Source: a bacterium
Lineage (GTDB): Bacteria; Bacillota; Clostridia; Oscillospirales; Acutalibacteraceae
Reading direction: 5' to 3'
Length of the DNA stretch: 54,439 bases
Assembly: GCA_963597385.1 (NCBI GenBank)
Contig: CAVBQD010000001.1
Location: forward strand, 1 to 54,439
Part shown: positions 6-23,649 of the stretch, piece by piece
How positions within the stretch are numbered: position 1 is the stretch's first letter
How the letters are laid out: every line of letters begins with the position of its first letter
Notes under the pieces: model-generated
The model's input: only the letters and a program-made list of their open reading frames with translations
Told to the model about the DNA's origin: nothing
Database searches by the model: none
Translations under genes and position numbers: made by a program

Positions 6-812
6 ATGCGTCAGTATTGGGCAGTTATCAATTCTTTCGGAAACGGTGTTACCGTCAAGCTCACAATCAATAACCATAGATTTGATAAGGAAGAATTTGA
101 AAAATCAATCCTTATGCCGTATTACTATGATAACCTTGATGTGTATCGTAAGGAATATAACGAAATGCTGCTTAATAAAGCGGCAACATCCGAGTGTATT
201 GTTCAGGATAAATATTTTACCGTTACGGTAAACAAAAAGTGCTATGAAGACGCAAGAGCATTTTTTACTCGTATTGAAAAGAACCTGTCAACAAACCTTT
301 TTACACTCGGCAGTAAATGTGAGCCGTTAAACGCAACCGAAAGACTTAAGATATTCCATAATTTCTACCGTGCAGGTAGTGAAGAAAACTTCAATCTTGA
401 TTTTGAACTTTTACAAAATCAAGGCTGTGATGTCCGTGACTATATTTCTCCCGATTCTATGGACTTCAACAGCGACTATATGATGATTAACGGTCAGTAT
501 TGCAGAACTGTTTTTCTTCGAAATTACGGTACATTTGTTGATGATAATATCATAACCGAGCTTACATCAATCAATAAGAACTTAATGCTCTCTATTGATT
601 TTATCCCTATTCCCGTTGATGAAGCAAACAAGGATGTAGATAACATTTTGCTTGGTGTTCAATCGGATAATCTTGCAAATTACAGTTTAAAACAAAAGGC
701 GTACTTTTGCATTGAGGGTGATATCAAAGGATATTTTGACAATATCAATATTATTCTCCATCTTCACTTTTTAATTATAATATATAAGTTTAGAAGCAAA
801 ATATTAAGATAA
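6..812 (+). pseudogene. Truncated VirB4/TrsE-like conjugative ATPase, N-terminal part only, probably 5'-partial at the window edge; ends in an RT-like fragment
   Basis: Resembles the N-terminus of Firmicute ICE VirB4 proteins (YRKEYNEML, QDKYFTVTVNKK..EDARAFF.RIE, L.ATERLKIFHNFYR.G.E, RDYISPDS, LMLSIDFIPIP.DEA). It stops at 268 aa with no Walker A motif, and similarity is lost around nt 695. Confidence 0.75.
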
Positions 813-1271
813 TGAATTTGAAATTGCTTCATCTGGAAATTTAAATGCAGCACCTTCTATATAGCTATTTTTGAATTTCAAATAATAGCAATTATCTTCT
901 CCTATATAAATTGTCCCAAAAAGGCTATGCGAATTATCATCATATGTTGCAAATATAGTGGCAAATTTAGTCACTAATTTTGTTTCGGGGATTTTTGAGC
1001 TTTTTTCTGCTGCAACTATTTCGTCAATTTCAGTTTTGTCAGAAGTAATATCTATTTTAATTCCACCATAGGAAACATATAATGATGTTATACTTTTCTC
1101 GTTTTGTTCATTAGAGTTGCTGCTTGGCTTAGTTGTACTTTCTTTCTTAGCATTATCGTTACTTGAATAACTGCTTTCGTTTGTGGTATTGATTGTTTCG
1201 ACACTTTTAGTACACGAAATTAAAGACAACGAAATTATTAAGCACAATATTAATATAATTGATTTTCTCAT
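804..1271 (-). CDS. Hypothetical lipoprotein
   Basis: MRKS + hydrophobic stretch + SLIS-C lipobox-like motif, S/T/N-rich linker, small C-terminal domain; GAGG RBS. Confidence 0.75.
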   Translation of the reverse strand: MRKSIILILCLIISLSLISCTKSVETINTTNESSYSSNDNAKKESTTKPSSNSNEQNEKSITSLYVSYGGIKIDITSDKTEIDEIVAAEKSSKIPETKLVTKFATIFATYDDNSHSLFGTIYIGEDNCYYLKFKNSYIEGAAFKFPDEAISNSLS

Positions 1272-1298
1272 ATTATTTTACCTCATTATAATTTAGAA

Positions 1299-1832
1299 TT
1301 AATACCATTTGTCTACCCAACCTTCTTTATCCGTAATAACTTGACTGCTTTTTTGAGTAGTACTGATTTGTGTTGTGGATTTTATATTTGTTGTACTTTT
1401 GTGCGTTGTTGAATTAGGCTTAGTGGTTTTAGAGTCACTTGTATTTCTTTCATGTGTTGACGAATTTGCTTGTGTCGTGCTTGTTATATTTGTATTTTGT
1501 GTGTCCACAGTATTTTCGTTTATTGAAGTTTTTGTGGAAATATTGCTTTTCTGAATTGCAGGATTTGTTTGCTTAATGTTTGATTTAGATGAAGTAGTTG
1601 TTTCATTTTTTGATGTATTATTAACCGATATTTCAGTTGTAATAGTTTCATCACTTTTATTAGTGACAAATTTTCCGTTTTTGTCTGTAATAGCTTTGTA
1701 ATAATGAGTAGTTCCTTGTTCGTCAGTAACAGCAGTAGTGGTTGCTATTTCACTACTGCTGTTATTTTCACAAGCAACAAAAGAAAAAATTATAACTATA
1801 ACAGATATTATAATTAATATTGCTTTTTTCAT
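1299..1832 (-). CDS. Ser/Thr-rich hypothetical lipoprotein
   Basis: Start moved to MKKAILII at 1832 (TAATG overlap with the upstream peptide stop). FVA-C lipobox, low-complexity T/S/N body, C-terminal TDKEGWVDKWY. Confidence 0.75.
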   Translation of the reverse strand: MKKAILIIISVIVIIFSFVACENNSSSEIATTTAVTDEQGTTHYYKAITDKNGKFVTNKSDETITTEISVNNTSKNETTTSSKSNIKQTNPAIQKSNISTKTSINENTVDTQNTNITSTTQANSSTHERNTSDSKTTKPNSTTHKSTTNIKSTTQISTTQKSSQVITDKEGWVDKWY

Positions 1833-1951
1833 TATGAACCCCATGGAATGTCTGTATCAGGTGAATTATCTCCTGAATCACTTGTGGTAATTACATCAAA
1901 TACAGAAAATTCTTCAATTAATGTTTCCGGCTTTGCGTATTTTTCTTTCAT
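1832..1951 (-). CDS. Unannotated 39-aa peptide MKEKYAKPETLIEEFSVFDVITTSDSGDNSPDTDIPWGS
   Basis: Translated by hand. AAGGAGG RBS upstream of the ATG; the ORF fills the gap between the protease stop and the lipoprotein start exactly, with a TAATG overlap. Confidence 0.85.
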   Translation of the reverse strand: MKEKYAKPETLIEEFSVFDVITTSDSGDNSPDTDIPWGS

Positions 1952-1953
1952 AT

Positions 1954-4689
1954 TTATGCCTCCTTATTAAGAGATAATTTAACTTGGTCTTTGATGTTTT
2001 GTTCTACTGTATCATCATTCAACACGGCATTTGCAACACTGCTGTAGCTTCGTGTAATGACAGGCGAATAAAAATACATTCCGTCAATATTTACATAAGC
2101 TCTTGCAGATATTTCGTCATTGATATGTTCTGCAGGAATACCGGTAAATACTGCATTATATGTTGAAACAGTTCCTTCAACATTTCTTTTATTTGCAGAT
2201 TTTACAAAAACATTGTTTCTGTTTGCTCTCAATGAATAATTTTTTTGAAAATCATTCTTGTTTTCATAAGAGTCAAAGGTATAAACAAAGCCGTAATCAA
2301 TATTTTCTGCGTATTTTTTGAAATCAAAATCAATAACTGTTTCATCAAACTCAAATCCAAAGCGCAAGCCATTATCTCTTGTTCGTATTTGTCCACCTTT
2401 GCTTTTAGCAAATTTATCACTTTCAACACGGATGAATCTATCTGTGTAACCATCTCTGTCTGCTTCGTTAAGTCCCGGTGTGTACTCCGGACTTACAAAT
2501 GTATATTTATAGTCCTTGTAATCATCAAGGAAATCAACTCCTGTCAGTTTATCACTGCAATAGATTGTTGTGTTATTTGGAATAGACAATGTTATATAAG
2601 TTGCCTTTGGTGCAAAAATCATATTTAGATTACTGCAACCGTTAAAGCGTCCGCTTAAGTCTTGCGCATTTGGAACATAAAGCACTTTAAGATTTTTACA
2701 GTTATTGAAAGCACTATTTCCAATTGATTTTGCTTTATTAAGTACAATTTCATCAGCTGTGCAGCCGTCAAATGCATTATCATCTGCTCTTGTGCAATTA
2801 GGAAGATGTATTGTGCTGAAATATGTTCCTGCTAATCCTTTTTCAGTAACCCAATCTACTGATGAAAAATCAGGTTGTTTTGGCAATGATTCACATCCGA
2901 AAAGAGCTTCACTGCCGATATATCTTACTTTTGATAAATCGATATCAGCAAGTTTACTGCAACCATAGAAACAGCGTTTATCTAAATTTTCAATACCATT
3001 TGCAGTTACTGATTTCAGATTTGTATTACTGAAAGCATCATCACCGATGCTTTCAATTGTATCCGGCAAAGTGATGGTTTCAATATTGCTGTTGCTGAAT
3101 ACTTGCGGACCTATTTGTCTTGGCTCTATTCCATTTACTACATCAGGAACAACAATATTTGCTTCATTGCCGAGGTATGCTTTAATTATGCCATCTCTGT
3201 CTATTACAAACTCACTTTCATTTTTTTCCAAGATGTAATAATCAAGATAAGTAAATTTACTGTGGAAAGGAGAACCTGCCCTTGCAAAGGCAGCTGCGAT
3301 AATTCTGGTTGAATCCGTAACATCAATAGTTGCAGTATATTTTGTGCCGTTTATTTCTGTCGGCAATGTGCCGTCTGTTGTGTAGTAAATATCCACAAGT
3401 GAATTTGCACATTTTAATTCAACGCTTATATTGTCACGGTATGCTCCGCTGATATAATTTGCAGTAACATCTTTGCATCTTGTGCCGTTTATGATGTTAG
3501 AAAAATTGACGATTCCTGCACCGTAACGGTCATTATAACAGTCACTCTTTTTAAATGGTGTTGCAGTTGCAATAATTTCCTGCTTAACCTGTTCGGGTGT
3601 GTAGCTTCTGTGTTCCATCAGGACATAGGCTGCGGCTGCTGATACAAGTGGCGTTGCAACAGAGGTTCCCTTGAATATTGCATAAGTATTATCACCGGGA
3701 AAATTAGCACTATATACACTAACTCCGGGAGCGGAAATATCCACACAACTACCATAATTTGAAGAAGTCCATGCATTTCCGTGTGGATTTATAGCAGCAA
3801 CTGTTATAGCACTGTCAAATAATGCAGGTTGTTGATAAACTTCTTTACCATCATTACCGGCAGCAGCAACAATAGTGACTCCCATATCAACAAGTTCATC
3901 TATTACAGTTCCAAGACTTCCTGTTGCAAATGAACAATTTATTATGTCAGGCTTGTTTTTTAATTGCTTGATATATGATAAAGCGGCTACAGCCTCTGAC
4001 GAAGTACCTTTTAAGTTTTTGTCAAATATTTTATAACCGAATAGTTTAACATTACTTGGCGTACTTTTAGCGATAACACCTGCCACTTTTGTACCATGAC
4101 CTGATGTGTCCATTTCATCACCTGAAGCATCAGTACTGAAATCTACTTTTGTGCGTTCAATTCTGTTTTTAAATAATTCGTGGTTATAATTGATTCCGCT
4201 GTCAACTACAGCAATATTTATATTGGATTTAGCCTTTAATTTGTAGTAATCAAGTGCAGAAACAGCATCGGTTTCCTCATAAGCCCATTCATCATTCGTA
4301 TTATACTTGTCATAAGTAGAACTTGAAGTAACAACACAATCATAATCTGCCGTATAGCCTGATTCTTCATAATTTTCTTTTGCTTTTTGTGCTGATTCTT
4401 CATCTGCATACTGCAAAAAAGCATAGCCAAAACCATATACACTGTCAACTGCACTGTATTCATCAATATTGTCATCAGTTTTTACAATCAGTCTTGTATT
4501 GATAGTTTGTTCATCTGTACTGTCTAATTCATTGTAATTGTCATATTCTTCACACATTTCTGCTATTTCACGCCCCACAGAAAGCGTGTTATTTAACTCA
4601 ACTTCCTCTGCTATTACACTATGGCAGGGATAAAGTGCAGATGAAAACATTGTAAGTGACAATAATAGGCTTATTGTTTTTTTAATCAA
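1954..4689 (-). CDS. Secreted S8 subtilase with chitobiase/FN3-associated domain, BspA-type LRR_5 repeats and an uncharacterised C-terminal domain
   Basis: Signal peptide; triad motifs IAVVDSG, HGTKVAG, GTSVATP; AAAGND oxyanion motif; IYYTTDGTLPT; xxIGxxAFxxCxxL repeats. Confidence 0.9.
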   Translation of the reverse strand: MIKKTISLLLSLTMFSSALYPCHSVIAEEVELNNTLSVGREIAEMCEEYDNYNELDSTDEQTINTRLIVKTDDNIDEYSAVDSVYGFGYAFLQYADEESAQKAKENYEESGYTADYDCVVTSSSTYDKYNTNDEWAYEETDAVSALDYYKLKAKSNINIAVVDSGINYNHELFKNRIERTKVDFSTDASGDEMDTSGHGTKVAGVIAKSTPSNVKLFGYKIFDKNLKGTSSEAVAALSYIKQLKNKPDIINCSFATGSLGTVIDELVDMGVTIVAAAGNDGKEVYQQPALFDSAITVAAINPHGNAWTSSNYGSCVDISAPGVSVYSANFPGDNTYAIFKGTSVATPLVSAAAAYVLMEHRSYTPEQVKQEIIATATPFKKSDCYNDRYGAGIVNFSNIINGTRCKDVTANYISGAYRDNISVELKCANSLVDIYYTTDGTLPTEINGTKYTATIDVTDSTRIIAAAFARAGSPFHSKFTYLDYYILEKNESEFVIDRDGIIKAYLGNEANIVVPDVVNGIEPRQIGPQVFSNSNIETITLPDTIESIGDDAFSNTNLKSVTANGIENLDKRCFYGCSKLADIDLSKVRYIGSEALFGCESLPKQPDFSSVDWVTEKGLAGTYFSTIHLPNCTRADDNAFDGCTADEIVLNKAKSIGNSAFNNCKNLKVLYVPNAQDLSGRFNGCSNLNMIFAPKATYITLSIPNNTTIYCSDKLTGVDFLDDYKDYKYTFVSPEYTPGLNEADRDGYTDRFIRVESDKFAKSKGGQIRTRDNGLRFGFEFDETVIDFDFKKYAENIDYGFVYTFDSYENKNDFQKNYSLRANRNNVFVKSANKRNVEGTVSTYNAVFTGIPAEHINDEISARAYVNIDGMYFYSPVITRSYSSVANAVLNDDTVEQNIKDQVKLSLNKEA

Positions 4690-4710
4690 AGTATAACCAC
4701 CTTATAGTCT

Positions 4711-4740
4711 GTACAGATATGCCCAAAGACATATCTGTAC
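4711..4740. other. Intergenic hairpin between the Rhs and S8 genes
   Basis: GTACAGATATG-N8-CATATCTGTAC is a perfect 11-bp stem with no U-tract on the minus strand, so more likely an mRNA stability element than a terminator. Confidence 0.55.
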
Positions 4741-4747
4741 TTAAATT

Positions 4748-7700
4748 TTATTCAACAGATTTTGAAATCTTGTATGGGGTGTTTTGTTCATTCACTGAAT
4801 ACTTTGTAACAGAAGATGTATCTTTGTCAATAGCAGATCCTATATAGTTCAATCCGTATCCACTTGTGACAATATCTTTTTGTTTGTTAAGAGTTTCATC
4901 CCAATAGGTTTTTGCATCAGCATCTAATGTTGTTCTTAAACCAAGACTGAGAACATCCAAACTTGTAGAAATTTCACCGAATTGTTTTGCAGTTGAACGG
5001 TTTTCTTTAATAAGATTATTTGTGCTGTTTACCAGTTGAGGAACAAAAGCATCACTTATTATCTGATCAGGTGCATTGAAACCTGTTTTTGTTATATTAT
5101 TAACAGGATCATTGCCACAATAGTTGAAAAGATTTGAGTTATATACACTGCTCATATCTTCTGTAAGTGTTGTAGGATCACTTGCATTAATGAAACGACC
5201 CCAAGAAGGTGAGTAATATCTTTTTTGACCATAATATAAACCCGTCTCAATATCATAGATATATCCTTTAAAACCTTGTTCCACACTAACAAATACACCA
5301 CTCAAATATAAAGCAACAACTAATGCAATTGCAATTTTTTGAATTATATCTACCCATACAGAACCACTAGGTTTATATTTATTTGCCATATCCTGAATAA
5401 ATGTACCCATATAGGTTGACGTCATATTTCCATAAGCATCATAAGACATTGAAATGACCACTTTTTCGCTTGGGTCATAAATTTCGGTAATATTACCTTG
5501 ACCATCCTTAACAAAAGTATAGTTTGCTGATTGCTTCCAATCAAGAATTTCTATACCTTCTTCTGTAATATTGGCAGTTTTATTAGCTTTTGAAGGTTCA
5601 CCCTCATTTGAGATAACACAAACTCCTACGATTTCATTATTGTTATAAATGATTTTTGTGGTTTTGTCGTAGCAAAGAACTGTTCCACTTCCATCTTCTG
5701 CTTCGCCATAAAATTTGGCTCTATAACCGGTAATTAAATCTCCGTCCCAAATATATACAATTTCTGATACCAAGTCTTTACCATTTGAATCATAACAAAT
5801 TTTTGATGTTCTTTTACCATCACCGTCATATGTGTATTGGTAAAGATTAGAACTGGTTTTAAATGACGTTAACAAATTACCGTTCCATGTCATATCGCCG
5901 TCAGTTAGCTCATTGTTTATGCTTGTACCGGCATATTTTACAGGATTACCCGCAGCATCATATTCTATGCTGTAGCCTTTATAACTGGTAAGATAATCAG
6001 TCATACCATTTGATTTATAATATAATTTTGTTGTCTCTCCATTAGTTTTTGGAGTGAAAATTAATGTGTCCGAATTATAATCATATGAATAATCTCTATC
6101 AGATATTTTTGAATAGGTCACTTTTTCAGAGATGTTTCCACCTTCGTCATAATAATATACAATTGCAATTTTACTTTCTAAATTAACATCTAAAGAAACT
6201 TGACCACCTTCATCGTATTTATAATAATGAATTAAATCACCTTCATTATAAGAATATGATGTTTTATTAGTTGGAGCATATGTAATATTGTTAGTTGATT
6301 TTTTAAATACAGATGTTACTCTACCGACATTGTCATATTTATAGCTCCATTCTGCTGATATACGGGTATTCTCATATTTTTCAGGCAAAATTTTATTAGA
6401 ACGTTTTGAAAGTTCGGTTTCGTAATGGGAAACTAAATTTGTCTGTCTATTGTTAATACCCTCAACATATTTTGTACTGGAGGTTAATCTATAATGTGTG
6501 TTTTTGTCGGCGTTACCCTTGTTTTCTACTGATGTACTCATCGTTCTGTCAAAAGTATCTAAAACTGTTTCAGCTTTTACAATAGGTCCTTTTGTGAGAG
6601 ATACTGTATATGAATCCTCTACAGTAGTTTTTGTTTTATCTTTTGATGGGGTTGATTTCTGATAGTAATCAAAGGATGTGCCAAAAAGATTTATTTTGCT
6701 TCCTGTATTAGAATAAACCGTTGTTCCATTCTTTTTAACAGTACAACCCTTGCTTGTGTAAGTAGTAACGGTATTTGAAACTTCATCCGTCATTTCAGCA
6801 ACAGAACCATCGCTGTTATATTCGTATGAGTAAACATAAGTTTCCTTTTCATCACCTGATTTGCCATTGTCGTAGATTGTTTTAATAATGTTGCTGCCAT
6901 CATATTTATAAATAATACTTGCACCATTACCGAAATTTACTTTTCCGACATTGTCAAGATCATATTCATATGACATTGAGTAATCAACATTCGCATTTTC
7001 TTCTGCAGATTCCTTAACAATTACATTTTCAATTTTACCATTTTTGTTATATGTGTACTCATAAAGACAACCATTATGATAAATTGAAGAAATTCGGTCA
7101 TTATCATCATAAGAATATTCAACAGTCTGATTAATGGTATCGCCTTCAGCAGTAGTGATTGCTTGTTGAACAGAGGTTAATACACCTATTCCGCTATATG
7201 TATATTGAGTGTTTTTGGACGAATCCGTATTTTTACCTTTTGATGTAAGTAATCCGCTGCCACAATCATAATTATAATATGTTACTTTTCCTGCTTCTTC
7301 AACCTGTGATTTATAATGCGAAGAATCATACTCATAATGCTTGCCGAGTGTTTTGTCACCGGTTCTTACTTTTATAATATCGGTAATTTGACCATATTCA
7401 TTTCTGACAATATCATATTTAGGAAGACCCGGTTCAGGAACAACAGGAGGGGCATTATCTATAGTTGCTACATACATTTCAAGATCGTCAAAATAGCATT
7501 CACCAGGCATATTCAAACTATTTATCTCAATTCTTACTTTAGAGATAGTTGAAGGAATATCTATCACGCATTTTGATGTTTGCCAATTATTAACGATATT
7601 GTAATCAAAATATGTTTCACCTATGAGAGTACCACTTACTGCACCATAAACTCTTACTGAATAATATCGCATATTATCTCTATCATTTTTAAAAGGTAGT

Positions 7701-9832
7701 GCTTGTTTACAATAAGCAGAACAGGATAGTACATATGATTCTCCCGGAGTTACACTAACTGTTTGTGTAGCTGTTCCACTTCTGTTATTAGCAATAAACG
7801 ATATAACTCCGTTATTTGTGTTGCCATTTTCCTTTAATGGGGCATCTTTTACAATTGATGCACCTTCTGTTAATGTCCAGTTACTATTACTTTCAAAACC
7901 ACCGTTAGTGATTATATTTTGAGAAGTTGAATCATCATATATCAAATGCTGTAATTCATTATTTGTGTAGTTCAAATAATATTCTTGACCATCGTAATTT
8001 TTGTAATGAATAAGATTTGAATCTTGGTCATAATGCATTATTTTCTTTGAATTATTTAATATATCTGAAAAAACACGATTATACGGGTTATCTAATGGTG
8101 AATTTATCTCTACTTCGTTTGAAATGACACCATCAGTTTTTAATGTGTATTTGGAAAGAATATTAGATTTATCCGTTCCGTTTTGATAATTTAATGTCAA
8201 TTCGGACGATGCTTCATTTGAAGAGTCATCGCTATATGTATTAATATTGCTGATTCTATTATCCTCATCATAAATATATGACACATAATATCCGTCCGGA
8301 TAAGTGACTTTTTCTAATCTGTTATTTTCATCATAACTATATTGAATTGTTATATCTTCGTCATTTATTTTTACCGATTGTTGTGTATCGTTATTATTGT
8401 AAAAAATACTGATTGAAGTCAGCATGTTATTGTTATAATTGAATTTGTATGTTCTTCTTGTACCATCTGTAATATATGAAATGTTTGAATTTTCATAAAC
8501 AATACTTACTTCATTTGTATATTGTTTTTCATTTTCATCTGTAAATACATATTTGATTTTTGTAACATAACCATTTGATCCTATTGAAGAAAAATAATAT
8601 GAAGTATTATCTTTTTCGCTTTTTATTTTTATTCTGTCATAATCGGTTTTATCATTAACACAGGTTAATATATATTTATCTCCTGAACTGTTAGAACCAA
8701 TAAATTTATTATCGGTATTACGCACGAAAAATATATATTCACCTTCGCAGTTTTTCCAATAATATTCTCCATTTTCATATTGAAGAATACTATAATAATT
8801 TGTACGAGTGTTAATTCCGTCCGAGGCGTTATTATCAATTGCCGAAGGGTTGATTATTGTTTGAACATTAACCTGTGCGAGCTCGTCATATACACTTAAA
8901 TCATTTCTGACAATCAGCGGAGAACAGGTGTAATCATTAACATATAATGTTCCTGCTCTGTCCAAATCTACAGTTTCAGATTCAATGGTTTTGTCAACAT
9001 CACCGATTTCACGATAATATATTCCCAAAACGATTGAATTAATTTCAATATATGTATTCTCTGATAACGGTTCAAGGGCCAATCCTTTGTTTTCATATAG
9101 CCCTAAGGAACTATAGTGTGCATATGATGTTATATCTATTTTACACTCATCAATTGTATCTGATGAAGCCATTTGCCTATCAATAATAACATCATCAATT
9201 GTACTTAAAGGAACATTTTGAATGTGATTTAATTCATTTTTCAATCTATATACATTAATAGTATTTGATGTATCGGCATTACCATTTGTCTCAACAGTTC
9301 CCGTTGAGATATTTAATGTAGCATTATTAATGAATACCTGCTTATCTGTAATGATGCTGGGTTTAACATAAATACAACTATCAATTCCGTTTACTGTTTT
9401 ATTTGAACCGGCAATTTTCATTGGATTTGTATCTACACCATTTGTATACATAGTTAAAGTTTCGCTTTCATAAAAACCTGTTTCGGCAGGATTTGAAACC
9501 GAATGTGCAGCAATTTCACTTACTGCATTTTCTGCATCTGCAACAGTATCAATGTTATTATCAATTTCTGATGTTTCCTTCCATTGACCATTAACATTGT
9601 TGTGAATAGGAACAGCGGCTGATACTTGATAATATCCGCCATCTTCGGTCAAGTATGTTTTAGAATTTTCCGTACGCTTACTTTCAATTTCATACTCGAC
9701 TGAAACTTCGTCAGCAGAAAATTCATAATCATTTTCAAACTCTTCCATTGCATAGGTAGTAGAAGGTATTACTGTTATTGCCATTACCATTGCAAGAAAA
9801 AGTGAAATAGATTTTTTAAAAGTCTTTTTCAT
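4748..9832 (-). CDS. WapA-like secreted Rhs/YD-repeat protein
   Basis: Sec signal; WapA-like N-terminus (KRTENSKTY...PIH...GQW); CBM-like NIITNGGFE segment; YD repeats; Rhs core YDAYG...GYIYDIETGLYY...RYYSPSWGRFINASDP...NLFNYCGNDPVN. Confidence 0.9.
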   Translation of the reverse strand: MKKTFKKSISLFLAMVMAITVIPSTTYAMEEFENDYEFSADEVSVEYEIESKRTENSKTYLTEDGGYYQVSAAVPIHNNVNGQWKETSEIDNNIDTVADAENAVSEIAAHSVSNPAETGFYESETLTMYTNGVDTNPMKIAGSNKTVNGIDSCIYVKPSIITDKQVFINNATLNISTGTVETNGNADTSNTINVYRLKNELNHIQNVPLSTIDDVIIDRQMASSDTIDECKIDITSYAHYSSLGLYENKGLALEPLSENTYIEINSIVLGIYYREIGDVDKTIESETVDLDRAGTLYVNDYTCSPLIVRNDLSVYDELAQVNVQTIINPSAIDNNASDGINTRTNYYSILQYENGEYYWKNCEGEYIFFVRNTDNKFIGSNSSGDKYILTCVNDKTDYDRIKIKSEKDNTSYYFSSIGSNGYVTKIKYVFTDENEKQYTNEVSIVYENSNISYITDGTRRTYKFNYNNNMLTSISIFYNNNDTQQSVKINDEDITIQYSYDENNRLEKVTYPDGYYVSYIYDEDNRISNINTYSDDSSNEASSELTLNYQNGTDKSNILSKYTLKTDGVISNEVEINSPLDNPYNRVFSDILNNSKKIMHYDQDSNLIHYKNYDGQEYYLNYTNNELQHLIYDDSTSQNIITNGGFESNSNWTLTEGASIVKDAPLKENGNTNNGVISFIANNRSGTATQTVSVTPGESYVLSCSAYCKQALPFKNDRDNMRYYSVRVYGAVSGTLIGETYFDYNIVNNWQTSKCVIDIPSTISKVRIEINSLNMPGECYFDDLEMYVATIDNAPPVVPEPGLPKYDIVRNEYGQITDIIKVRTGDKTLGKHYEYDSSHYKSQVEEAGKVTYYNYDCGSGLLTSKGKNTDSSKNTQYTYSGIGVLTSVQQAITTAEGDTINQTVEYSYDDNDRISSIYHNGCLYEYTYNKNGKIENVIVKESAEENANVDYSMSYEYDLDNVGKVNFGNGASIIYKYDGSNIIKTIYDNGKSGDEKETYVYSYEYNSDGSVAEMTDEVSNTVTTYTSKGCTVKKNGTTVYSNTGSKINLFGTSFDYYQKSTPSKDKTKTTVEDSYTVSLTKGPIVKAETVLDTFDRTMSTSVENKGNADKNTHYRLTSSTKYVEGINNRQTNLVSHYETELSKRSNKILPEKYENTRISAEWSYKYDNVGRVTSVFKKSTNNITYAPTNKTSYSYNEGDLIHYYKYDEGGQVSLDVNLESKIAIVYYYDEGGNISEKVTYSKISDRDYSYDYNSDTLIFTPKTNGETTKLYYKSNGMTDYLTSYKGYSIEYDAAGNPVKYAGTSINNELTDGDMTWNGNLLTSFKTSSNLYQYTYDGDGKRTSKICYDSNGKDLVSEIVYIWDGDLITGYRAKFYGEAEDGSGTVLCYDKTTKIIYNNNEIVGVCVISNEGEPSKANKTANITEEGIEILDWKQSANYTFVKDGQGNITEIYDPSEKVVISMSYDAYGNMTSTYMGTFIQDMANKYKPSGSVWVDIIQKIAIALVVALYLSGVFVSVEQGFKGYIYDIETGLYYGQKRYYSPSWGRFINASDPTTLTEDMSSVYNSNLFNYCGNDPVNNITKTGFNAPDQIISDAFVPQLVNSTNNLIKENRSTAKQFGEISTSLDVLSLGLRTTLDADAKTYWDETLNKQKDIVTSGYGLNYIGSAIDKDTSSVTKYSVNEQNTPYKISKSVE

Positions 9833-9937
9833 TTGGTATTCTCCTTTGTTTTTAATTTCAAAATAAATTCAATTCCCTTTGTAAAGTCTACACATCATCT
9901 CCTATAATGAAATTTCAGATACTATATTCAATTTAAC

Positions 9938-10009
9938 ATTATCATTTTTAGAATCATAAATTAATACCAAATACTGAAACGCAAGAAATTCGTGTCGATA
10001 CGCAATAAA
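9938..10009 (-). promoter_or_regulatory. Putative AgrA/LytTR-activated promoter of the Rhs operon
   Basis: Direct repeats TTTATTGCGTATC (10009-9997) and TTTCTTGCGTTTC (9988-9976) with a 21-bp period; -10-like GATAAT at 9943-9938; no good -35. Confidence 0.65.
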
Positions 10010-10039
10010 AAAGCGACTTGACATAGTCAAATCGCTTTT
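10007..10039 (-). terminator. Rho-independent terminator after agrC
   Basis: AAAAGCGATTTGAC-TAT-GTCAAGTCGCTTTTTT on the minus strand. Confidence 0.7.
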
Positions 10040-10047
10040 AGTAATTG

Positions 10048-11328
10048 CTATTTTAAAATAATTGTAGTTGTAAATTGTTTTTTTTCGTTGTTGTATTCCC
10101 ATTCCAAGTCGCCTTTATATTTTTTTAATACCTTTTTGACGCTTTTTATTCCTAAACCATGTGATTTTTTATTTTCTTTAGTTGTTTTTAATTCTCCGTT
10201 TACACTTTGGGGTGGTGTATCACAACTGTTTGTTACGATTATTGAATCATAAGTGTTGACTTTATTTGTTTCAAGTAATATACACTTATTTTTTGAGCTA
10301 TATGCAGCTTTAACTGCATTATCAAGTATATTGCCCAAAATGGTTACTAAATCGTAATCATCAACAATCTTCAGATTGGATAATCTTACATCAAAATTAA
10401 AATTGATATTTTTTATTTCACATTCCGTAACATATTTATTTATGATAACATCAAGTGTATGATTACCACTATGACAAGTGCTGCTGTGTGCTTTTAATTC
10501 ATTTGTCATTTTAGTCAAATATTTGTCAATTTGTTCATTGTGATTAAGAGCTTTAATAGCATTTAGGTGATTTTTAGTATCATGAGCATAAATCATTAAT
10601 TCGTTATTTTGCTGTTCGAGAATATCATAATATTTTTTATCTATATTTGTTTTTTCTATTTCTTGTTCAATGATTAAATACTGATTTTCTTTTACAACAC
10701 TATTTTGATAAACGATAAATAACATTACCGTTGAGAAGAACATCAGCATACTTGTTATAGATAATAATATTTGATGCGTATTGCTTAATTTGTAATTGGC
10801 ACAAATACTCCAAAACAAAATTAATGCCAAAGTAATTACCATTGGATAAAAATATAATGCTATTGGAATTTTTACACTTCTTTTTTCTTTTTTTATCAGT
10901 GCCGACAGAACCAAACAAGTTAAGAAATACAGTATTTTGCTTACAGAAACATCAATTATAAAGAAAGTTAAATTATCTACATATTCATTGACTTTTGTAC
11001 CAGTTAATGTTGATATCAAGAATATTGCTGCAAATTCGAGTGCGGTTGAAAATATGTCTAAGATTATAGAGTAAAATAATATTTTGGCTATTTTAATATT
11101 GAAACATAAAACTGCAAATAAAAAATTAATTATGATAAATAATAATATATTTAACCATACCGTATTAGAAAAAATAATATCACTTATAGCACCGATTTCA
11201 AAAACGGCAGTACCTATAATGCAACAAATCCAAAAATTATGCTTTCTCTCTCCAATTTGTGAAAAGAATATATATGCAATCAGCATTTCTATAAAATAAG
11301 TTGTACAAATAGCAATATTACTTGCCAT
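10048..11328 (-). CDS. agrC: AgrC-like membrane sensor histidine kinase (GHKL, HATPase_c_5 type)
   Basis: Multiple TM segments; H-box YAHDTKNHL, N-box LGNILDNAV, G-box KSHGLGIKSV; adjacent to agrA/agrB/agrD. Confidence 0.88.
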   Translation of the reverse strand: MASNIAICTTYFIEMLIAYIFFSQIGERKHNFWICCIIGTAVFEIGAISDIIFSNTVWLNILLFIIINFLFAVLCFNIKIAKILFYSIILDIFSTALEFAAIFLISTLTGTKVNEYVDNLTFFIIDVSVSKILYFLTCLVLSALIKKEKRSVKIPIALYFYPMVITLALILFWSICANYKLSNTHQILLSITSMLMFFSTVMLFIVYQNSVVKENQYLIIEQEIEKTNIDKKYYDILEQQNNELMIYAHDTKNHLNAIKALNHNEQIDKYLTKMTNELKAHSSTCHSGNHTLDVIINKYVTECEIKNINFNFDVRLSNLKIVDDYDLVTILGNILDNAVKAAYSSKNKCILLETNKVNTYDSIIVTNSCDTPPQSVNGELKTTKENKKSHGLGIKSVKKVLKKYKGDLEWEYNNEKKQFTTTIILK

Positions 11329-11330
11329 AA

Positions 11331-12026
11331 TTATCTCCTTTTAACATAATTAAACCAATACTTGTGAAAATCAGCTTGCTTCCTTGTTGCAACAGAAATT
11401 CTTGTATCATCAATATAAATTTCTTTATAACTGTATTCAGTTATGTAGTGTAGATTAACATAAAATGATTTGTGAACTAAATAGAAAAATGTATTAGGTA
11501 GAGCACTTATCAATTCGTCAAATTTGCAACGCACAGTATAAATTTCGTTATTAGTGACAACTATGTTTTTTCTGTTTTCTCGCTTTATATATTTAATATC
11601 ATCAACAGAAACTTTTATGTGTCGATTCTTATTTTCGATATATACATCAATGTATGATTCATTAAGATATTCTATTGCTCTGTTAAGTCCTGAATAAAGG
11701 CGTTCAATATTAAGAGGTTTATCAAAAAATCTGAATATATGTAAGTCCATTGCTTCATCTTGATATTCATCAAAAGCAGTTATGAAAAATAATATAACCT
11801 TGTTATTTCTGCTTTTTAATTCTTTCGCAAGAGTAATTCCGTCAATTTCAGGCATTTGAATATCTAAAAATGCAAAATCGAATACAGTATCAGTTGCTAA
11901 AATTTCACTTGGATTAGTTGTAGTGAAAAATTCTGCCTTCATATAATGATTCTTCATATATTCCTCTATATGTATTTTTAATTGATTAAGATTACTTTTT
12001 TCATCATCACATATTACTATTTTCAT
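11331..12026 (-). CDS. agrA: LytTR-family response regulator (AgrA-like)
   Basis: Receiver motifs ICDDE, FLDIQMP, FITAF, KP; LytTR motif HKSFYVNL. Confidence 0.9.
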   Translation of the reverse strand: MKIVICDDEKSNLNQLKIHIEEYMKNHYMKAEFFTTTNPSEILATDTVFDFAFLDIQMPEIDGITLAKELKSRNNKVILFFITAFDEYQDEAMDLHIFRFFDKPLNIERLYSGLNRAIEYLNESYIDVYIENKNRHIKVSVDDIKYIKRENRKNIVVTNNEIYTVRCKFDELISALPNTFFYLVHKSFYVNLHYITEYSYKEIYIDDTRISVATRKQADFHKYWFNYVKRR

Positions 12027-12038
12027 AACAAAACCACC

Positions 12039-12079
12039 AAAAAAATCACTCTTACCAAGTTAATGGCAAGAGTGATTTT
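12039..12079 (-). terminator. Terminator-like hairpin between xre and agrA
   Basis: AAAATCACTCTTGCCA-N5-TGGTAAGAGTGATTTTTTT on the minus strand, ending just before the agrA RBS. Confidence 0.6.
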
Positions 12080-12095
12080 AACACGATTAACTTTT

Positions 12096-12425
12096 TTAGT
12101 CAAATTTATATTTGCTATGAATATATGTTTTGATGAGTTCCATAGCTATATTTTGTTCATCTTGTGATAGCTGCTGAAATAATTGTATTATTTGATCTTC
12201 GCGCTGTTGTTCAATCTTGCCAAAATAGTAATAATCAAGTGTACCACCTAAAACATTACAAATTTTAGTAGATACTTTAATAGTTGGTAAATTGTGACCA
12301 CATTCAATACTGGATAAATGATTTTTTGAAATATCAATTAATTCGGCTAATTTTTCTTGTGAATAACCATATTCTTTCCTCTTTTGCATTATTCTTATAC
12401 CAACAAGTTTAGCGTTTACTTCCAT
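12096..12425 (-). CDS. XRE-family HTH transcriptional regulator
   Basis: RKEYGYSQEKLAELIDISKNHLSSIECG HTH_3 pattern. Confidence 0.9.
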   Translation of the reverse strand: MEVNAKLVGIRIMQKRKEYGYSQEKLAELIDISKNHLSSIECGHNLPTIKVSTKICNVLGGTLDYYYFGKIEQQREDQIIQLFQQLSQDEQNIAMELIKTYIHSKYKFD

Positions 12426-12549
12426 AATATATCACCTCTTATGGTTATGCTATCATTTAAAGAAAAAATAAACCAACAAGTAAAACAGAACATATCTATA
12501 TAATCAGTAATTATCATTAAAATATTTAACAATTAATTTAAAATAATGA

Positions 12550-12622
12550 ATTTCTGCATTTAATGCATATTTTATTGCAGTTTGCAAATAAAGTAGAAAA
12601 TATCCTTTTTTAATGATACAAT
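12550..12622 (+). promoter_or_regulatory. Putative AgrA/LytTR-activated promoter of agrDB
   Basis: Direct repeats ATTTCTGCATTTA (12550-12562) and TTTATTGCAGTTT (12571-12583) with a 21-bp period; extended -10 TGnTACAAT at 12614-12622. Confidence 0.65.
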
Positions 12623-12644
12623 AATGTAAAAGGAGGAAGGATAT

Positions 12645-12794
12645 ATGAAGAATTTTAAATCGCTTCTTACAAAAATGGTAAGAAACACAGCTGAAATTGC
12701 ATTAAAAAGAGACGCTAATTCGACTACTTGTGCTGCAGTATATCAGCCTAAAGCACCGGTTTCTCTTGACAAATTCAAAAAGCACATTGACTAA
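12645..12794 (+). CDS. agrD: AgrD cyclic (thio)lactone autoinducer precursor, 49 aa: MKNFKSLLTKMVRNTAEIALKRDANSTTCAAVYQPKAPVSLDKFKKHID
   Basis: Not in the ORF track. AGGAGG RBS, amphipathic leader, clostridial NSTTCxxxYQPKxP motif, TAATG overlap with agrB. Confidence 0.92.
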   Translation: MKNFKSLLTKMVRNTAEIALKRDANSTTCAAVYQPKAPVSLDKFKKHID

Positions 12795-13396
12795 TGATTT
12801 CGAAATTAGCAGAAAAATTAGTTGATTGTTTGTATTGTCAACACGACATATCAGATGATGAACAAGAACTGTACAAATATGGATTCTTTGTTTTACTTTC
12901 ACAGATACTATATTTAATAATTGCAATTATTCTAGGATTCATATTTAAATCAGTTTTTGAAAGCATTATTTTCTATATTGCTTTTCAGTTTATAAGAAGA
13001 TATGCCGGTGGCTATCATGCCAAGACTGAAACAAGATGCGAAATATTATCAACTTTATCAATTTTATGCTGTATAGTGCTTATCAAGTTATCAAAAATGT
13101 ATGATATTAGAATTGCATTACTTAGTATATCTTTAGTATTTGCTGTTTTAATATTCATTCTTTGTCCGCTTGATACCCCGGAAAAGCCTTTATCTGATAA
13201 GGAGTATAAATACTTTCGTAAAATATCTTGGATAATATTATTACTAATTATTGTTGCAATAATCATATCATTTATTTTCAAAATTAATATTGTATTTGCA
13301 CCTTGCTGTGTAAGTACAATTTTTGAAGGTGTACTAATTGGCACGGGTCAAATTAAAAAAGCATACAGTAAAAAAAGAGCAAACTCTGAAATTTAA
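12794..13396 (+). CDS. agrB: AgrB autoinducer-processing membrane peptidase
   Basis: IRRYAGGYHAKTETRC motif with catalytic His/Cys, PLDTPEKP motif, multiple TM segments. Confidence 0.93.
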   Translation: MISKLAEKLVDCLYCQHDISDDEQELYKYGFFVLLSQILYLIIAIILGFIFKSVFESIIFYIAFQFIRRYAGGYHAKTETRCEILSTLSILCCIVLIKLSKMYDIRIALLSISLVFAVLIFILCPLDTPEKPLSDKEYKYFRKISWIILLLIIVAIIISFIFKINIVFAPCCVSTIFEGVLIGTGQIKKAYSKKRANSEI

Positions 13397-13439
13397 AGAG
13401 TTTGCTCTTCATAATTGTATATGTAAATACAGAAACGCA

Positions 13440-13604
13440 ATGCAAATAAAAGAGATTATTTGCCTAACCGGCGCTAAGCTAGTGTTTCCGGTTTGTCCAC
13501 AATGCGGCGGAGCAATCGAAAGAGAATATATGAAATATTGCTCAAATTGTGGTCAAAAATTGTCATGGAAAGACTTTGATTTCATAGAAATAACATATAA
13601 ATAA
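13440..13604 (+). CDS. Small zinc-ribbon protein; start uncertain
   Basis: CPQC-x11-CSNCGQKLSW. Confidence 0.6.
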   Translation: MQIKEIICLTGAKLVFPVCPQCGGAIEREYMKYCSNCGQKLSWKDFDFIEITYK

Positions 13605-13795
13605 TTATTTACGCTAACGAATATTAGCAAATATTCGTTAAGGTCTTGTTTTTTGCCCGAATTTGGCTTGAATACTGCGTTTTATGGCATTTCGAATTTT
13701 AATTGTTCCTTATACAAAATCATATAACCACCATACTGACTCAAATATTTGGGGTACTGAAATTAGTAATTCATTCACGATTTTTTTTAAAAGCA

Positions 13796-13824
13796 TAGAC
13801 AAAAACTGACAGATAAGCTACAAT
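13796..13824 (+). promoter_or_regulatory. Sigma-A-like promoter upstream of tam
   Basis: TAGACA-N17-TACAAT. Confidence 0.5.
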
Positions 13825-14024
13825 AGCTATTGATTTTTAAAATGTTTGCAGTTAAAAACAGAAAGAGAGCGTTTCAGAAAAATCAGGCACGATTTGTCAA
13901 AAAATACAACGGCGTATTTACCTTTAACATTAACGGAGATAAATATATAACAGGCACTGTACTTGATAACATTGAATGTGTAAGTCAATAACACCTATTT
14001 CTTAGATTTTAAGGAGATGATAAT

Positions 14025-14792
14025 ATGTCCGACTGGAGTTCGGCACAGTATATGAAATTTGCAAAGGAACGCACACAGCCGTCGGTGGATTTGGTGGCTC
14101 GTTTGTGTGACATTAACCCCAAAAATGTACTCGACATCGGTTGCGGTCCGGGCAACAGCACGCATGCACTCAAAGAGCGTTTTACCGATGCCGAAATTCT
14201 CGGAATTGACGCTTCGCCCGATATGCTCGAACGGGCACGGGCAACCTATCCCGATATGAAATTCAAACAGTGTTTTGTGCCGCAGGGGTTTTCCGAAATT
14301 GATGAAAACTTTGATTTGATTTTTTCAAACGCGTGCATTCATTGGATACCGAAACAAAAGGAACTGTTGACCGCAACGGTTGACAAGCTGAACCCGGGCG
14401 GAACTCTTGCCGTGCAAATTCCTTACATTCAAGCGGCACCGTTTTACAAAGTTTTGTTCAAAATGGTCGAATGCGAAAAATGGCAAAAACTGTCGACAAT
14501 CAAAAATTTCCACAACCTTACACCGGAAGAATACTACGATGTTTTGGACGAAGTCGGACTTGATTTTGACATTTGGCAAACCGATTATTTTCACACGGTT
14601 GACGGAATTGACGGCGTAATAAATTGGTACAAAGGCAGCGGACTGCGACCGTACCTTGACGCACTTGACAAAAACGAACGGGCGGAGTTTTTGACTGAAC
14701 TCAAAGAAAACATCAAAAACGAATATTCGTTCCAAGCAAACGGCAAAATGATACTGAAAATGCCGAGAATTTTCTTCACAGCGAAAAAATGA
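14025..14792 (+). CDS. tam: Trans-aconitate 2-methyltransferase-like SAM methyltransferase
   Basis: W..AQYMKF..ERTQP..DL, LDIGCGPGNST, FSNACIHW, W.KGSGLRPYL. Confidence 0.88.
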   Translation: MSDWSSAQYMKFAKERTQPSVDLVARLCDINPKNVLDIGCGPGNSTHALKERFTDAEILGIDASPDMLERARATYPDMKFKQCFVPQGFSEIDENFDLIFSNACIHWIPKQKELLTATVDKLNPGGTLAVQIPYIQAAPFYKVLFKMVECEKWQKLSTIKNFHNLTPEEYYDVLDEVGLDFDIWQTDYFHTVDGIDGVINWYKGSGLRPYLDALDKNERAEFLTELKENIKNEYSFQANGKMILKMPRIFFTAKK

Positions 14793-23524: not shown

Positions 23525-23649
23525 AATATTCACCTCACCCATCAAATCAACAAATAATTTTTATAATTAATAAGCCTTAAAAGATTAAATACTTACCTTA
23601 GTAAAATACCAAAGCAAGTATTTTTCATTCTATATAATACTTCTCGATT

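Follow-up and report, generated by a model that had tools for sequence, protein, structure and literature searches.

An agr-type quorum-sensing cassette adjoining a five-gene operon was found at positions 804–13604 of the window, the whole 54,439-nt stretch of DNA analysed here, which is one entire contig (C1) of a 2.14-Mb metagenome-assembled genome (MAG) in 242 contigs. The operon encodes an Rhs protein, a secreted S8 subtilase, a 39-amino-acid (aa) peptide (PEP) and two lipoproteins (Lip1 and Lip2), and comparison with related loci revealed that the genes form one conserved unit. Gene calls were based on an open reading frame (ORF) listing together with Pfam and NCBIfam family scans of the window; all the genes named in an earlier reading made from the letters of the DNA (the sequence-only reading) could be located within this interval.

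With moderate confidence, the locus may be read as an Fsr/gelE-like quorum-sensing switch for a lipoprotein-tethered surface protease and an Rhs protein. The regulatory part of this reading appears solid from the gene families and promoter repeats described below, and the tethering role assigned to the lipoproteins is plausible.

Gene order and conservation of the cassette

The features of the cassette are given below with window coordinates and strand.
804–1271, minus: Lip2 lipoprotein, 155 aa, lipobox LISC (ORF and lipobox)
1299–1844, minus: Lip1 lipoprotein, lipobox FVAC; translation likely begins at the ATG at 1832, which overlaps the PEP stop codon
1832–1951, minus: PEP, 39-aa acidic peptide without signal peptide; strong Shine-Dalgarno (SD) sequence AAGGAGG 7 nt upstream
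1954–4689, minus: secreted S8 subtilase, 911 aa (Pfam, PDB sequence search, 51-sequence alignment)
4711–4740, minus: hairpin between rhs and s8, without a T tract
4748–9832, minus: class-A Rhs/YD protein, 1694 aa, with Sec signal peptide (RHS_repeat and Rhs core)
9977–10005, minus: direct repeats, predicted LytTR site of the Rhs operon promoter
about 10007–10038, minus: terminator-like hairpin with a T run, 3' of the kinase gene
10048–11328, minus: AgrC-type histidine kinase, polytopic N-terminus and HATPase_c_5 (GHKL)
11331–12026, minus: AgrA-type response regulator, receiver and LytTR domain
12096–12425, minus: XRE-family helix-turn-helix protein, first gene of the regulator operon
12554–12582, plus: direct repeats, predicted LytTR site of the agrDB promoter
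12645–12794, plus: AgrD precursor (TIGR04223)
12794–13396, plus: AgrB peptidase/cyclase (PF04647)
13338–13604, plus: 88-aa ORF with two CxxC pairs, Zn-ribbon-like (below Pfam cut-offs), overlapping the end of agrB

The rhs-s8 gap of 58 nt holds the hairpin, the s8-pep gap is 2 nt with the AAGGAGG sequence lying within the end of s8, the pep stop and lip1 start overlap as TAATG, and 27 nt separate lip1 from lip2. The sequence-only reading had described a full agr set followed by the five-gene block. Both are present, but the order differs, since agrDB is divergent from the other genes. Likewise agrD is present but stands upstream of agrB, and the ORF after agrB (13338–13604) is the Zn-ribbon-like ORF and not agrD. 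After agrB, related loci carry ORFs of 139 and 174–179 aa, one of them weakly sigma-70/ECF-like. That description is further corrected by the XRE gene with which the regulator operon starts, and it lacked the terminator-like hairpin that separates the kinase gene from the Rhs promoter.

The gene-neighbourhood comparison across gut Clostridia MAGs proposed with the sequence-only reading revealed conserved co-occurrence. A subtilase-anchored scan of species-representative genomes gave 62 loci, which were annotated with our own ORF caller, BLAST against the proteins of the window and of a congener, and a PEP profile. Upstream neighbours were counted for the subtilase genes with at least 2.5 kb of upstream sequence (n = 43) and downstream neighbours for those with at least 1.5 kb downstream (n = 49). 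Kinase and Rhs genes (the full cassette) preceded 10 of the 43 subtilases, a two-component system only preceded 14, and neither was found in 19. Downstream of the 49 subtilases, PEP occurred in 37 loci, Lip1 in 27 and one or both in 41, most of them without Rhs; S8-PEP-Lip1 is thus a module of its own. An AgrB profile found agrB confined to the Rhs-bearing loci of the subtilase-anchored set (8 loci and the window).

A reverse scan of metagenomes, for which the 450 C-terminal aa of the Rhs protein served as query, gave 77 loci. The 31 that were at least 37% identical and reached the Rhs tip (L124–L154) were annotated, and the other 46 (L155–L200; at most 31% identical), which matched the generic Rhs core only and not the tip, were left out. 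The subtilase gene lay directly 3' of rhs in 31/31 metagenome loci with a class-A Rhs C-terminus, and a kinase gene lay upstream in all 19 loci with enough upstream DNA. agrB was seen in 15 of the 31, the remaining 16 contigs beginning with a cassette gene. PEP and Lip1 were present in 23/23 loci and Lip2 in 18/23; of the five exceptions, one has an odd Lip1 fusion, and in the other four a 156-aa lipoprotein of another kind takes the place of Lip2.

The sequence-only reading had placed the cassette on a decayed integrative and conjugative element (ICE). An ORF at 6–812 (plus strand) matches the CD1110-type VirB4 ATPase (NF045971, E 2.4e-57, profile positions 47–268 of 752); this fragment is cut by the contig start, ends after about the first third and abuts or runs into lip2. 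A full-length 779-aa VirB4 homologue occupies the same relative place in L103, and on this side related loci carry either a full VirB4 together with a class B sortase and other genes, or a CD1115-type VirD4. The island (bases 1 to about 14,000) has about 30% GC content against about 43% for the rest of the contig. The decayed element is therefore supported, because related loci keep full-length conjugation genes on the same side, and the assignment of the cassette as ICE cargo is likewise supported by these comparisons.

Quorum-sensing genes and promoter repeats

AgrB passed the PF04647 model (E 7.9e-40, 136.6 bits against a cut-off of 23), and AgrD, which contains ANSTTCAAVYQPKAP / STTCAAVYQPKAP, passed TIGR04223 (19.8 bits against a cut-off of 19). 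The predicted AgrD ring in the window is CAAVY. The AgrC-type kinase matched HATPase_c_5 at 3.9e-21 and the regulator Response_reg and LytTR at 2.1e-13; the staphylococcal AgrC equivalog model did not accept the window kinase (22 bits against a cut-off of 500). In 18 further distinct loci agrD precedes agrB, with a fixed frame, ANSTT[CS]xxx[YF]QP, and a variable ring (CAAVY, CTAVY, CAAVF, CTIVY, CGAIF, CVALY, SGTVF, SSTIY and others). Rings of the form C[AT]AV[YF] accompany kinases at least 82% identical to that of the window, and the XRE gene is also present in related cassettes. With four of four gene families and the repeat architecture, the cassette is assigned to the agr family.

Both promoters hold 9-bp direct repeats 21 bp apart, which bears out the earlier observation of the same repeat motif in the two. 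The Rhs-operon repeat, TTGCGTATC-N12-TTGCGTTTC, lies at 9977–10005 on the minus strand, just past the kinase terminator hairpin, and the agrDB repeat, CTGCATTT-N13-TTGCAGTT, at 12554–12582 on the plus strand, 5' of agrD. A degenerate pattern matched twice in the 54-kb window, at both known sites, against 0.01 expected, a circular test as the pattern was built from the four half-sites of the two window promoters themselves. Among 46 distinct kinase-downstream spacers of related loci, a perfect 9/9 direct repeat at exactly 21 bp could be observed in 22 and a repeat of at least 8/9 at this distance in 32; the other periods from 15 to 28 gave 0–1 perfect repeats each, and 100 shuffles of the same spacers gave a mean of 0.06. 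The repeat sequence varies by regulator type (CTTGCGTTTC, TTTGCATTTT, TCTGCATTT, CTTGCAATTT and others). The Rhs-less congener homologue L023, whose regulator and kinase are about 82% identical to those of the window, has the same repeat and terminator directly 5' of its subtilase gene. A generic sigma-70 promoter scan was at shuffle level (95 found, 82.7 expected) and was not used.

Paired 9-bp repeats with 12-bp spacers are a known site type of LytTR regulators. In E. faecalis, FsrA binds LytTR sites before fsrB and gelE, as described in PMC5454873. The regulator of the window would correspondingly drive both agrDB and the five-gene operon. Since both promoters hold LytTR-type repeats that change together with the regulator type, it can soundly be inferred that cell density would trigger the expression of a secreted or surface system.

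Further agr-related genes were seen in the same genome and elsewhere in the window. A second agr cassette lies on contig C35 (about 5892–14156), where agrB is divergent from XRE, regulator and kinase genes; it continues with a 1517-aa subtilase bearing leucine-rich repeats (LRR) and with PEP, no Rhs and no lipoprotein being seen, and it is a more distant paralogue of the window cassette. A third agrB of the same genome is on contig C56. An orphan gene for a 453-aa AgrC-like GHKL kinase (window 22184–23545, minus strand) sits in a low-GC (30%) islet of its own with no adjoining regulator, and at the right-hand border of the island a 53-aa remnant (13830–13991, plus strand) matches the C-terminal 26 aa of this orphan kinase with 62% identity.

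Products of the five-gene operon

The subtilase consists of a signal peptide, an I9-like prodomain, the S8 domain (PF00082 at 2e-43), CHB_HEX_C/Fn3_assoc, BspA-type LRR (LRR_5) and a C-terminal domain without family assignment, a beta-sandwich with a helix. Its triad, D163, H198 and S343, is invariant in 51 aligned subtilases, and subtilisin and proteinase-K chains in the PDB match at 1e-33 to 1e-21, so that the catalytic domain is an ordinary subtilisin-like one. The NCBIfam model denti_PrtP matches at 3e-21, below its cut-off. At the end of the signal peptide (residues 20–23) a Pro-Cys pair was seen, with P21 kept in at least 90% of the 51 sequences and no lipobox fit. Rhs presence is scattered on the subtilase tree, with 10 changes for 11 Rhs-linked rows, as for shuffled labels, and the closest relative of the window subtilase is a dockerin-bearing protein outside any Rhs cassette.

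Among the subtilases without PEP and Lip1, five of eight have a Cys-rich end with a dockerin-like DLNNDxxINAKDY repeat replacing the C-terminal helix; such an end occurs in none of the 41 followed by PEP or Lip1. Homologues were screened with a lipobox regular expression. In Lip1 the lipobox is accompanied by a conserved TTAVTDxxGTTHYY stretch and an S/T-rich linker, and the protein closes with the almost invariant TDKDGW[IV]xKWY (…TDKEGWVDKWY in the window). Because dockerin-like ends and PEP/Lip1 alternate among the subtilases, and given the lipobox, stalk and end of Lip1, this lipoprotein may plausibly be taken, most simply, as a membrane tether replacing the dockerin. The anchor role that the sequence-only reading had offered for the lipoproteins is thereby best supported for Lip1.

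PEP combines a conserved head, MKExYxKPxxxIxxFxxxDVITTS, with an acidic tail whose last residue is aromatic; the tail classes are …EPDTDIPWGS, …DDNIVDGSDGW and …GDTDLxFGD. No Pfam or NCBIfam family matched it. A word-indexed search gave 271 PEP proteins, every named one of which is a hypothetical protein. When the full search was made with a profile, 1659 cluster representatives were obtained at E up to 0.001, and nearly all of them have a length of 30–60 aa. PEP occurs in 38 of 401 sampled genomes of the order, and the present genome has seven copies. Six of these lie just 3' of a large same-strand ORF (coding for three LRR-subtilases, one M64 peptidase and two more large proteins). Of the six large ORFs, four start with a signal peptide, the ORF on C128 is without one at its called start, and that on C116 has one only after upstream extension. 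The seventh copy, on C134, has no large ORF directly upstream and lies in a repeat-rich non-coding stretch. Distant PEP members in other families also mostly follow long same-strand ORFs.

Some observations on individual PEP genes may be added. The copy on C82 follows an M64 IgA-peptidase-like protein of 1176 aa, and those on C130 (where the preceding ORF has a signal peptide) and C128 follow large ORFs sharing their C-terminal region with the C82 protein. The possibility that the C-terminal domain of the subtilase is common to all PEP-preceding proteins was not supported, as hhalign of this domain against the C-termini of three others of the genome gave a probability of 0.17%, even though these ends resemble one another by eye. 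PEP as a read-through or frameshift extension was also rejected, since copies differ in how far they lie from the upstream stop codon, and PEP possesses an SD sequence and an ATG of its own. A 1223-aa match to the PEP profile (10 stretches) was discarded as a repeat protein with a chance-like motif. Extra tandem PEP genes in two loci (L065:11310–11429 and L077:12757–12873) have the Lip1 motif …SGWIDKWY as their tail, a natural head-tail swap involving the PEP and Lip1 families.

A complex of subtilase residues 28–911 with PEP was modelled from our own alignments of 51 and 34 rows. The model score was 0.61, against 0.01 for the best of three controls; 116 of 157 solved complexes attain this level, as do 2 of 215 mismatched pairs, a rough calibration given that the alignments were our own. 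At least 62% of contacts are common to the runs, with a partner pLDDT of 49–50, at which the fold of PEP itself is uncertain. The confident contacts of the model join PEP residues 28–39, the tail, to subtilase residues 769–776, 800–805, 828–836 and 843–855. The contacted face is the most conserved of the beta-sandwich (R776, Y799–F801, A832, N845, V847, I851 and P852 are invariant or nearly so), and the invariant PEP residue D32 is modelled beside R776, N845 and V847. The PEP tail classes and the subtilase contact segments change together. The model supports docking of the PEP tail on the C-terminal domain of the subtilase; it places the tail on the beta-sandwich and not at the active site, which speaks against the peptide as a protease substrate, a role suggested by the sequence-only reading.

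Lip2 was present in 8/8 Rhs-bearing and 0/36 Rhs-less subtilase loci. Its AF2 model has a core (residues 60–148) with pLDDT of about 90. Foldseek found nothing in the PDB at E up to 0.001 for this fold, and the best VIA-align matches, an uncharacterised Ruminococcus gnavus protein (Z 4.9, rmsd 4.3, 82 aligned) and a putative C. perfringens lipoprotein (Z 3.8), gave no functional lead. Lip2 is at least 90% identical to the window copy exactly where Rhs residues of about 1200–1500 are 90–99% identical (L124, L127 and L141), and about 45% identical where these residues are 57–77% identical; variation in the Rhs N-terminus, subtilase and kinase is independent of that in Lip2. This pattern suggests a contact between the Rhs shell and Lip2. 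As the same Lip2 family follows Rhs proteins with unrelated tips, Lip2 would not be a tip-specific immunity protein.

The Rhs protein matched Rhs repeats (PF05593) at 2.6e-11 and the Rhs core (TIGR03696) with 51.4 bits against a cut-off of 32.5. DPxGL is the defining self-cleavage motif at the end of the Rhs core. In the window protein and all aligned class-A relatives, the core ends instead with NDPVNNITKTGF where DPxGL is expected. The 130-aa C-terminal tip is conserved, being recognisable at 33% overall identity, and is not polymorphic (83–98% identity in windows 16–17 across most loci). A transmembrane (TM)-like segment lies at residues of about 1490–1521 (Kyte-Doolittle 2.25), before the core motif. 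The sequence-only reading had pointed out that a protease gene, and no small immunity gene, directly follows rhs, and this was confirmed: the 58–63 nt after class-A rhs genes contain no ORF but only a hairpin (4711–4740 in the window), the structure of which is conserved with compensatory changes across class-A loci. For the tip, a Pfam search at E up to 1 gave noise only, and phmmer against the PDB gave 0 hits. Its AF2 model from 25 sequences has a pLDDT of 39.6, too low for a fold search. The best Atlas score, 0.87, corresponds to no family, and the nearest named Atlas clusters are Ntox34 (0.78) and Ntox16 (0.76), scores that the tool rates as often due to chance.

A second kind of Rhs protein (class B), about 26% identical, occupies the same slot in two loci, one of which is the paralogous cassette of the congener. 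Class-B proteins have the canonical DPxG. Their tips are not the same in the two loci, and a 64–69-aa two-TM ORF lies directly downstream, which gives these loci the look of classical toxin-immunity pairs. Both classes are followed by a subtilase, PEP, Lip1 and the same Lip2 family. The window Rhs is judged not to be a typical member of the WapA-like polymorphic toxins, because three defining features, namely the self-cleavage motif, variation in the tip and an immunity gene next to rhs, were all looked for and not found.

Other Rhs-related sequences were also noted. A further Rhs gene of 1279–1431 aa, 26–38% identical to that of the window, stands after Lip2 and a 152–169-aa ORF in L076, L130, L134, L143, L144 and L145. 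In the kinase-subtilase interval of L117, which is otherwise without Rhs, a 38-aa ORF 60% identical to part of Rhs looks like the scar of an Rhs deletion.

Proposed mechanism, alternatives and related systems

In the proposed Fsr-like switch, AgrB would make a thiolactone peptide with the ring CAAVY from AgrD, and the AgrC-type kinase would sense this AgrD-derived peptide and phosphorylate the LytTR regulator. The regulator would bind the repeats before agrD (autoinduction) and before rhs (output), as in fsrABDC-gelE-sprE, and would switch the five-gene operon on at high cell density. The Rhs protein and the subtilase would both be exported via the Sec pathway. Each of these two large proteins is likely kept on the cell surface by a lipoprotein of its own. 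Lip1 would tether the protease, with a lipid anchor, a Thr-rich stalk and the invariant GWxxKWY end taking the role that the dockerin has in sister proteases, and the acidic tail of PEP may dock on the C-terminal beta-sandwich of the protease as a plug, adaptor or competitor. Lip2 would be a partner of the Rhs shell and no immunity protein against the tip.

Several points weigh against this reading. Quorum-sensing control of the operon is a prediction from sequence, and the related loci come from related MAGs, so that the counts are not independent events. The exclusivity of dockerin and PEP/Lip1 amounts to three independent tree contrasts, all as expected (sign test, p 0.25). The tail of Lip1 is near-invariant while the PEP-binding surface of the subtilase varies by class; Lip1 may bind elsewhere on the subtilase or bind something else. 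The covariation of PEP with the subtilase is equally explained by linkage, as the coding segments lie within about 400 bp, and that of Lip2 with Rhs comes down to essentially two haplotype groups. PEP is without a signal peptide and would need either an export route yet to be found or a cytoplasmic encounter with the exported protease. Finally, the TM-like segment of Rhs could itself anchor this protein, and a Lip2 tether would then be unnecessary.

In a wider possibility, held only tentatively, PEP and Lip1 would be an undescribed, widespread, non-covalent and exchangeable surface display of large exported proteins in Clostridia, replacing cohesin-dockerin and here under agr control and with a non-toxic or novel-acting Rhs shell. 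The acidic, aromatic-ended tail would dock on the beta-sandwich, and the carrier would be either a lipoprotein stalk or the 24-residue mini-protein head. The sequence-only reading had proposed that the subtilase matures the Rhs protein. Release or maturation of the Rhs tip, and perhaps of the peptide, outside the cell after loss of DPxGL, with the lipoproteins protecting the producer, is an unlikely explanation. It agrees with NNITKTGF in the DPxGL position of class-A Rhs, with the subtilase adjoining Rhs in 31/31 loci and with the listing of subtilisin/S8 among the processing proteases of Sec-exported RHS toxins in PMC3482391. However, the S8-PEP-Lip1 module occurs without Rhs in 33/43 loci, Rhs is scattered on the subtilase tree, and subtilase alleles are freely exchanged relative to the conserved Rhs. 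A class-B Rhs with intact DPxG precedes the same kind of subtilase in the same slot, and the protease is therefore not likely to stand in for lost autoproteolysis. Protection by the lipoproteins fares no better, as the Rhs tip is conserved while Lip2 varies (31–95% identity), one Lip2 family serves unrelated tips, and class-B Rhs genes are followed by a two-TM ORF of their own.

A contact-dependent toxin of the WapA kind directed against other species, with Lip2 as extracytoplasmic immunity protein and the protease and peptide as an unrelated co-regulated module, is also doubtful. A conserved, non-polymorphic tip, the absence of an ORF in the 58–63 nt after class-A rhs, the covariation of Lip2 with the Rhs shell (residues 1200–1500) and not with the tip, the presence of both the small two-TM ORF and Lip2 in class-B loci and the fact that Pfam and PDB sequence searches found no toxin family for the tip all count against it, in spite of the Rhs repeats and core, the strict co-occurrence of Lip2 with Rhs, the resemblance of the class-B relatives in the same slot to classical toxin-immunity pairs and the closeness of the tip to the Ntox34 (0.78) and Ntox16 (0.76) clusters, itself rated as often due to chance. 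As the tip is conserved and no immunity gene follows, the Rhs protein is probably not a kin-discriminating toxin of this kind. For PEP, an exported leader and core (signal, inhibitor or RiPP-like, that is, resembling peptides that are made on ribosomes and modified after translation) is improbable; its head would be the leader for a transporter or maturase encoded elsewhere, and the released tail would act outside on the C-terminal domain of the protease or on the orphan AgrC-like kinases of Rhs-less loci. The annotated cassettes hold no transporter or maturase, PEP genes also follow proteins in kinase-less loci, the window has its own AgrD, and PEP has no Cys, no known RiPP-class hallmarks and no family match. 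What fits such a peptide is a head conserved across the order (38/401 genomes) with tails that differ by paralogue, a family of 1659 clusters, the two loci with the extracellular Lip1 motif GWIDKWY as PEP tail, many regulator-kinase-S8-PEP loci without agrBD nearby, and the modelling of the tail, not the head, on the protease. It is very improbable that there is no functional unit at all, the genes being independent ICE cargo that looks like an operon through hitch-hiking: the cassette does lie beside conjugation genes and is a mosaic in which module identities differ widely between loci, but order and spacing are kept in 31/31 Rhs-anchored loci despite recombination inside the block, stop and start codons overlap, and a single repeat-bearing promoter and a terminator flank the five genes.

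Almost no targets are known for the agr systems of commensal gut Clostridia, and the cassette offers a concrete, conserved and, by its promoter repeats, apparently directly wired output operon. An Rhs protein may accordingly be a constant member of a quorum-sensing regulon that a mobile element carries, and class-A Rhs represents a form breaking three rules of the polymorphic-toxin family. The analysis also brings to light an unannotated mini-protein family of 1659 clusters, multicopy, with members trailing large exported proteins and a modelled binding site. It is plausible that the LRR-subtilases secreted by abundant gut bacteria act on surfaces of the host or of neighbours, and density control and cell attachment of such enzymes would matter for gut ecology. 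The combination had not been recognised as a described system in the sequence-only reading, and in agreement with this no description of the cassette or of the PEP, Lip1 or Lip2 families was found in the part of the literature that was searched.

Each component can be compared with known systems. With the WapA/WapI-type Rhs toxins the window protein shares the Sec signal peptide, YD/Rhs repeats and Rhs core, and its class-B relatives alone share DPxG, divergent tips and a small downstream ORF; class-A Rhs differs by the absence of DPxGL, the conserved tip, the TM-like insert and the lack of an adjacent immunity gene. Staphostatins and Spi are small cytoplasmic inhibitors (about 100 aa) encoded just after secreted proteases. 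PEP resembles them as a small protein without signal peptide encoded directly after a secreted protease gene, but it has 39 aa, is modelled off the active site and also follows proteins of the same genome in which no protease domain was seen. In lactococcal PrtP-PrtM and in Treponema denticola dentilisin (PrtP-PrcA-PrcB), lipoprotein partners are needed for the surface form of the S8 protease. The operon is similar in encoding an S8 protease together with lipoproteins; Lip1, however, has no PPIase (peptidyl-prolyl isomerase) or PrcA-like domain and is made up of a lipobox, a stalk rich in S/T and a conserved end of 11 residues. The dockerin-like module of the sister subtilases, exactly in the position of the helix, recalls the cohesin-dockerin pairs of Clostridia and suggests non-covalent surface attachment. 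Here the partner would be a lipoprotein or a mini-protein tail on the beta-sandwich, modelled for PEP only, with no cohesin.

On the regulatory side, the regulator site of Staphylococcus aureus agr (P2/P3) has paired 9-bp direct repeats spaced 12 bp apart, and the window shares such paired repeats and the four agr gene families with that system. It differs in that the output operon is adjacent and protein-coding and in that the kinase scores 22 bits against 500 on the staphylococcal AgrC model. An RNAIII-like effector was not found, no search aimed at one having been made. The closest parallel to the proposed switch is fsrABDC/gelE-sprE of Enterococcus faecalis, in which, according to PMC5454873, an agr-like cassette of a LytTR regulator, AgrB-like and AgrD-like genes and an AgrC-like kinase lies directly beside a secreted-protease operon and LytTR sites stand before both the signal genes and the protease operon. 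The output there is a metalloprotease and a glutamyl endopeptidase, whereas here an Rhs protein and an LRR-subtilase are produced together with a 39-aa peptide and two lipoproteins; moreover, agrDB runs divergently, there is an additional XRE gene, an ICE carries the cassette, and the likeness holds at the level of gene families, with no orthology beyond it.

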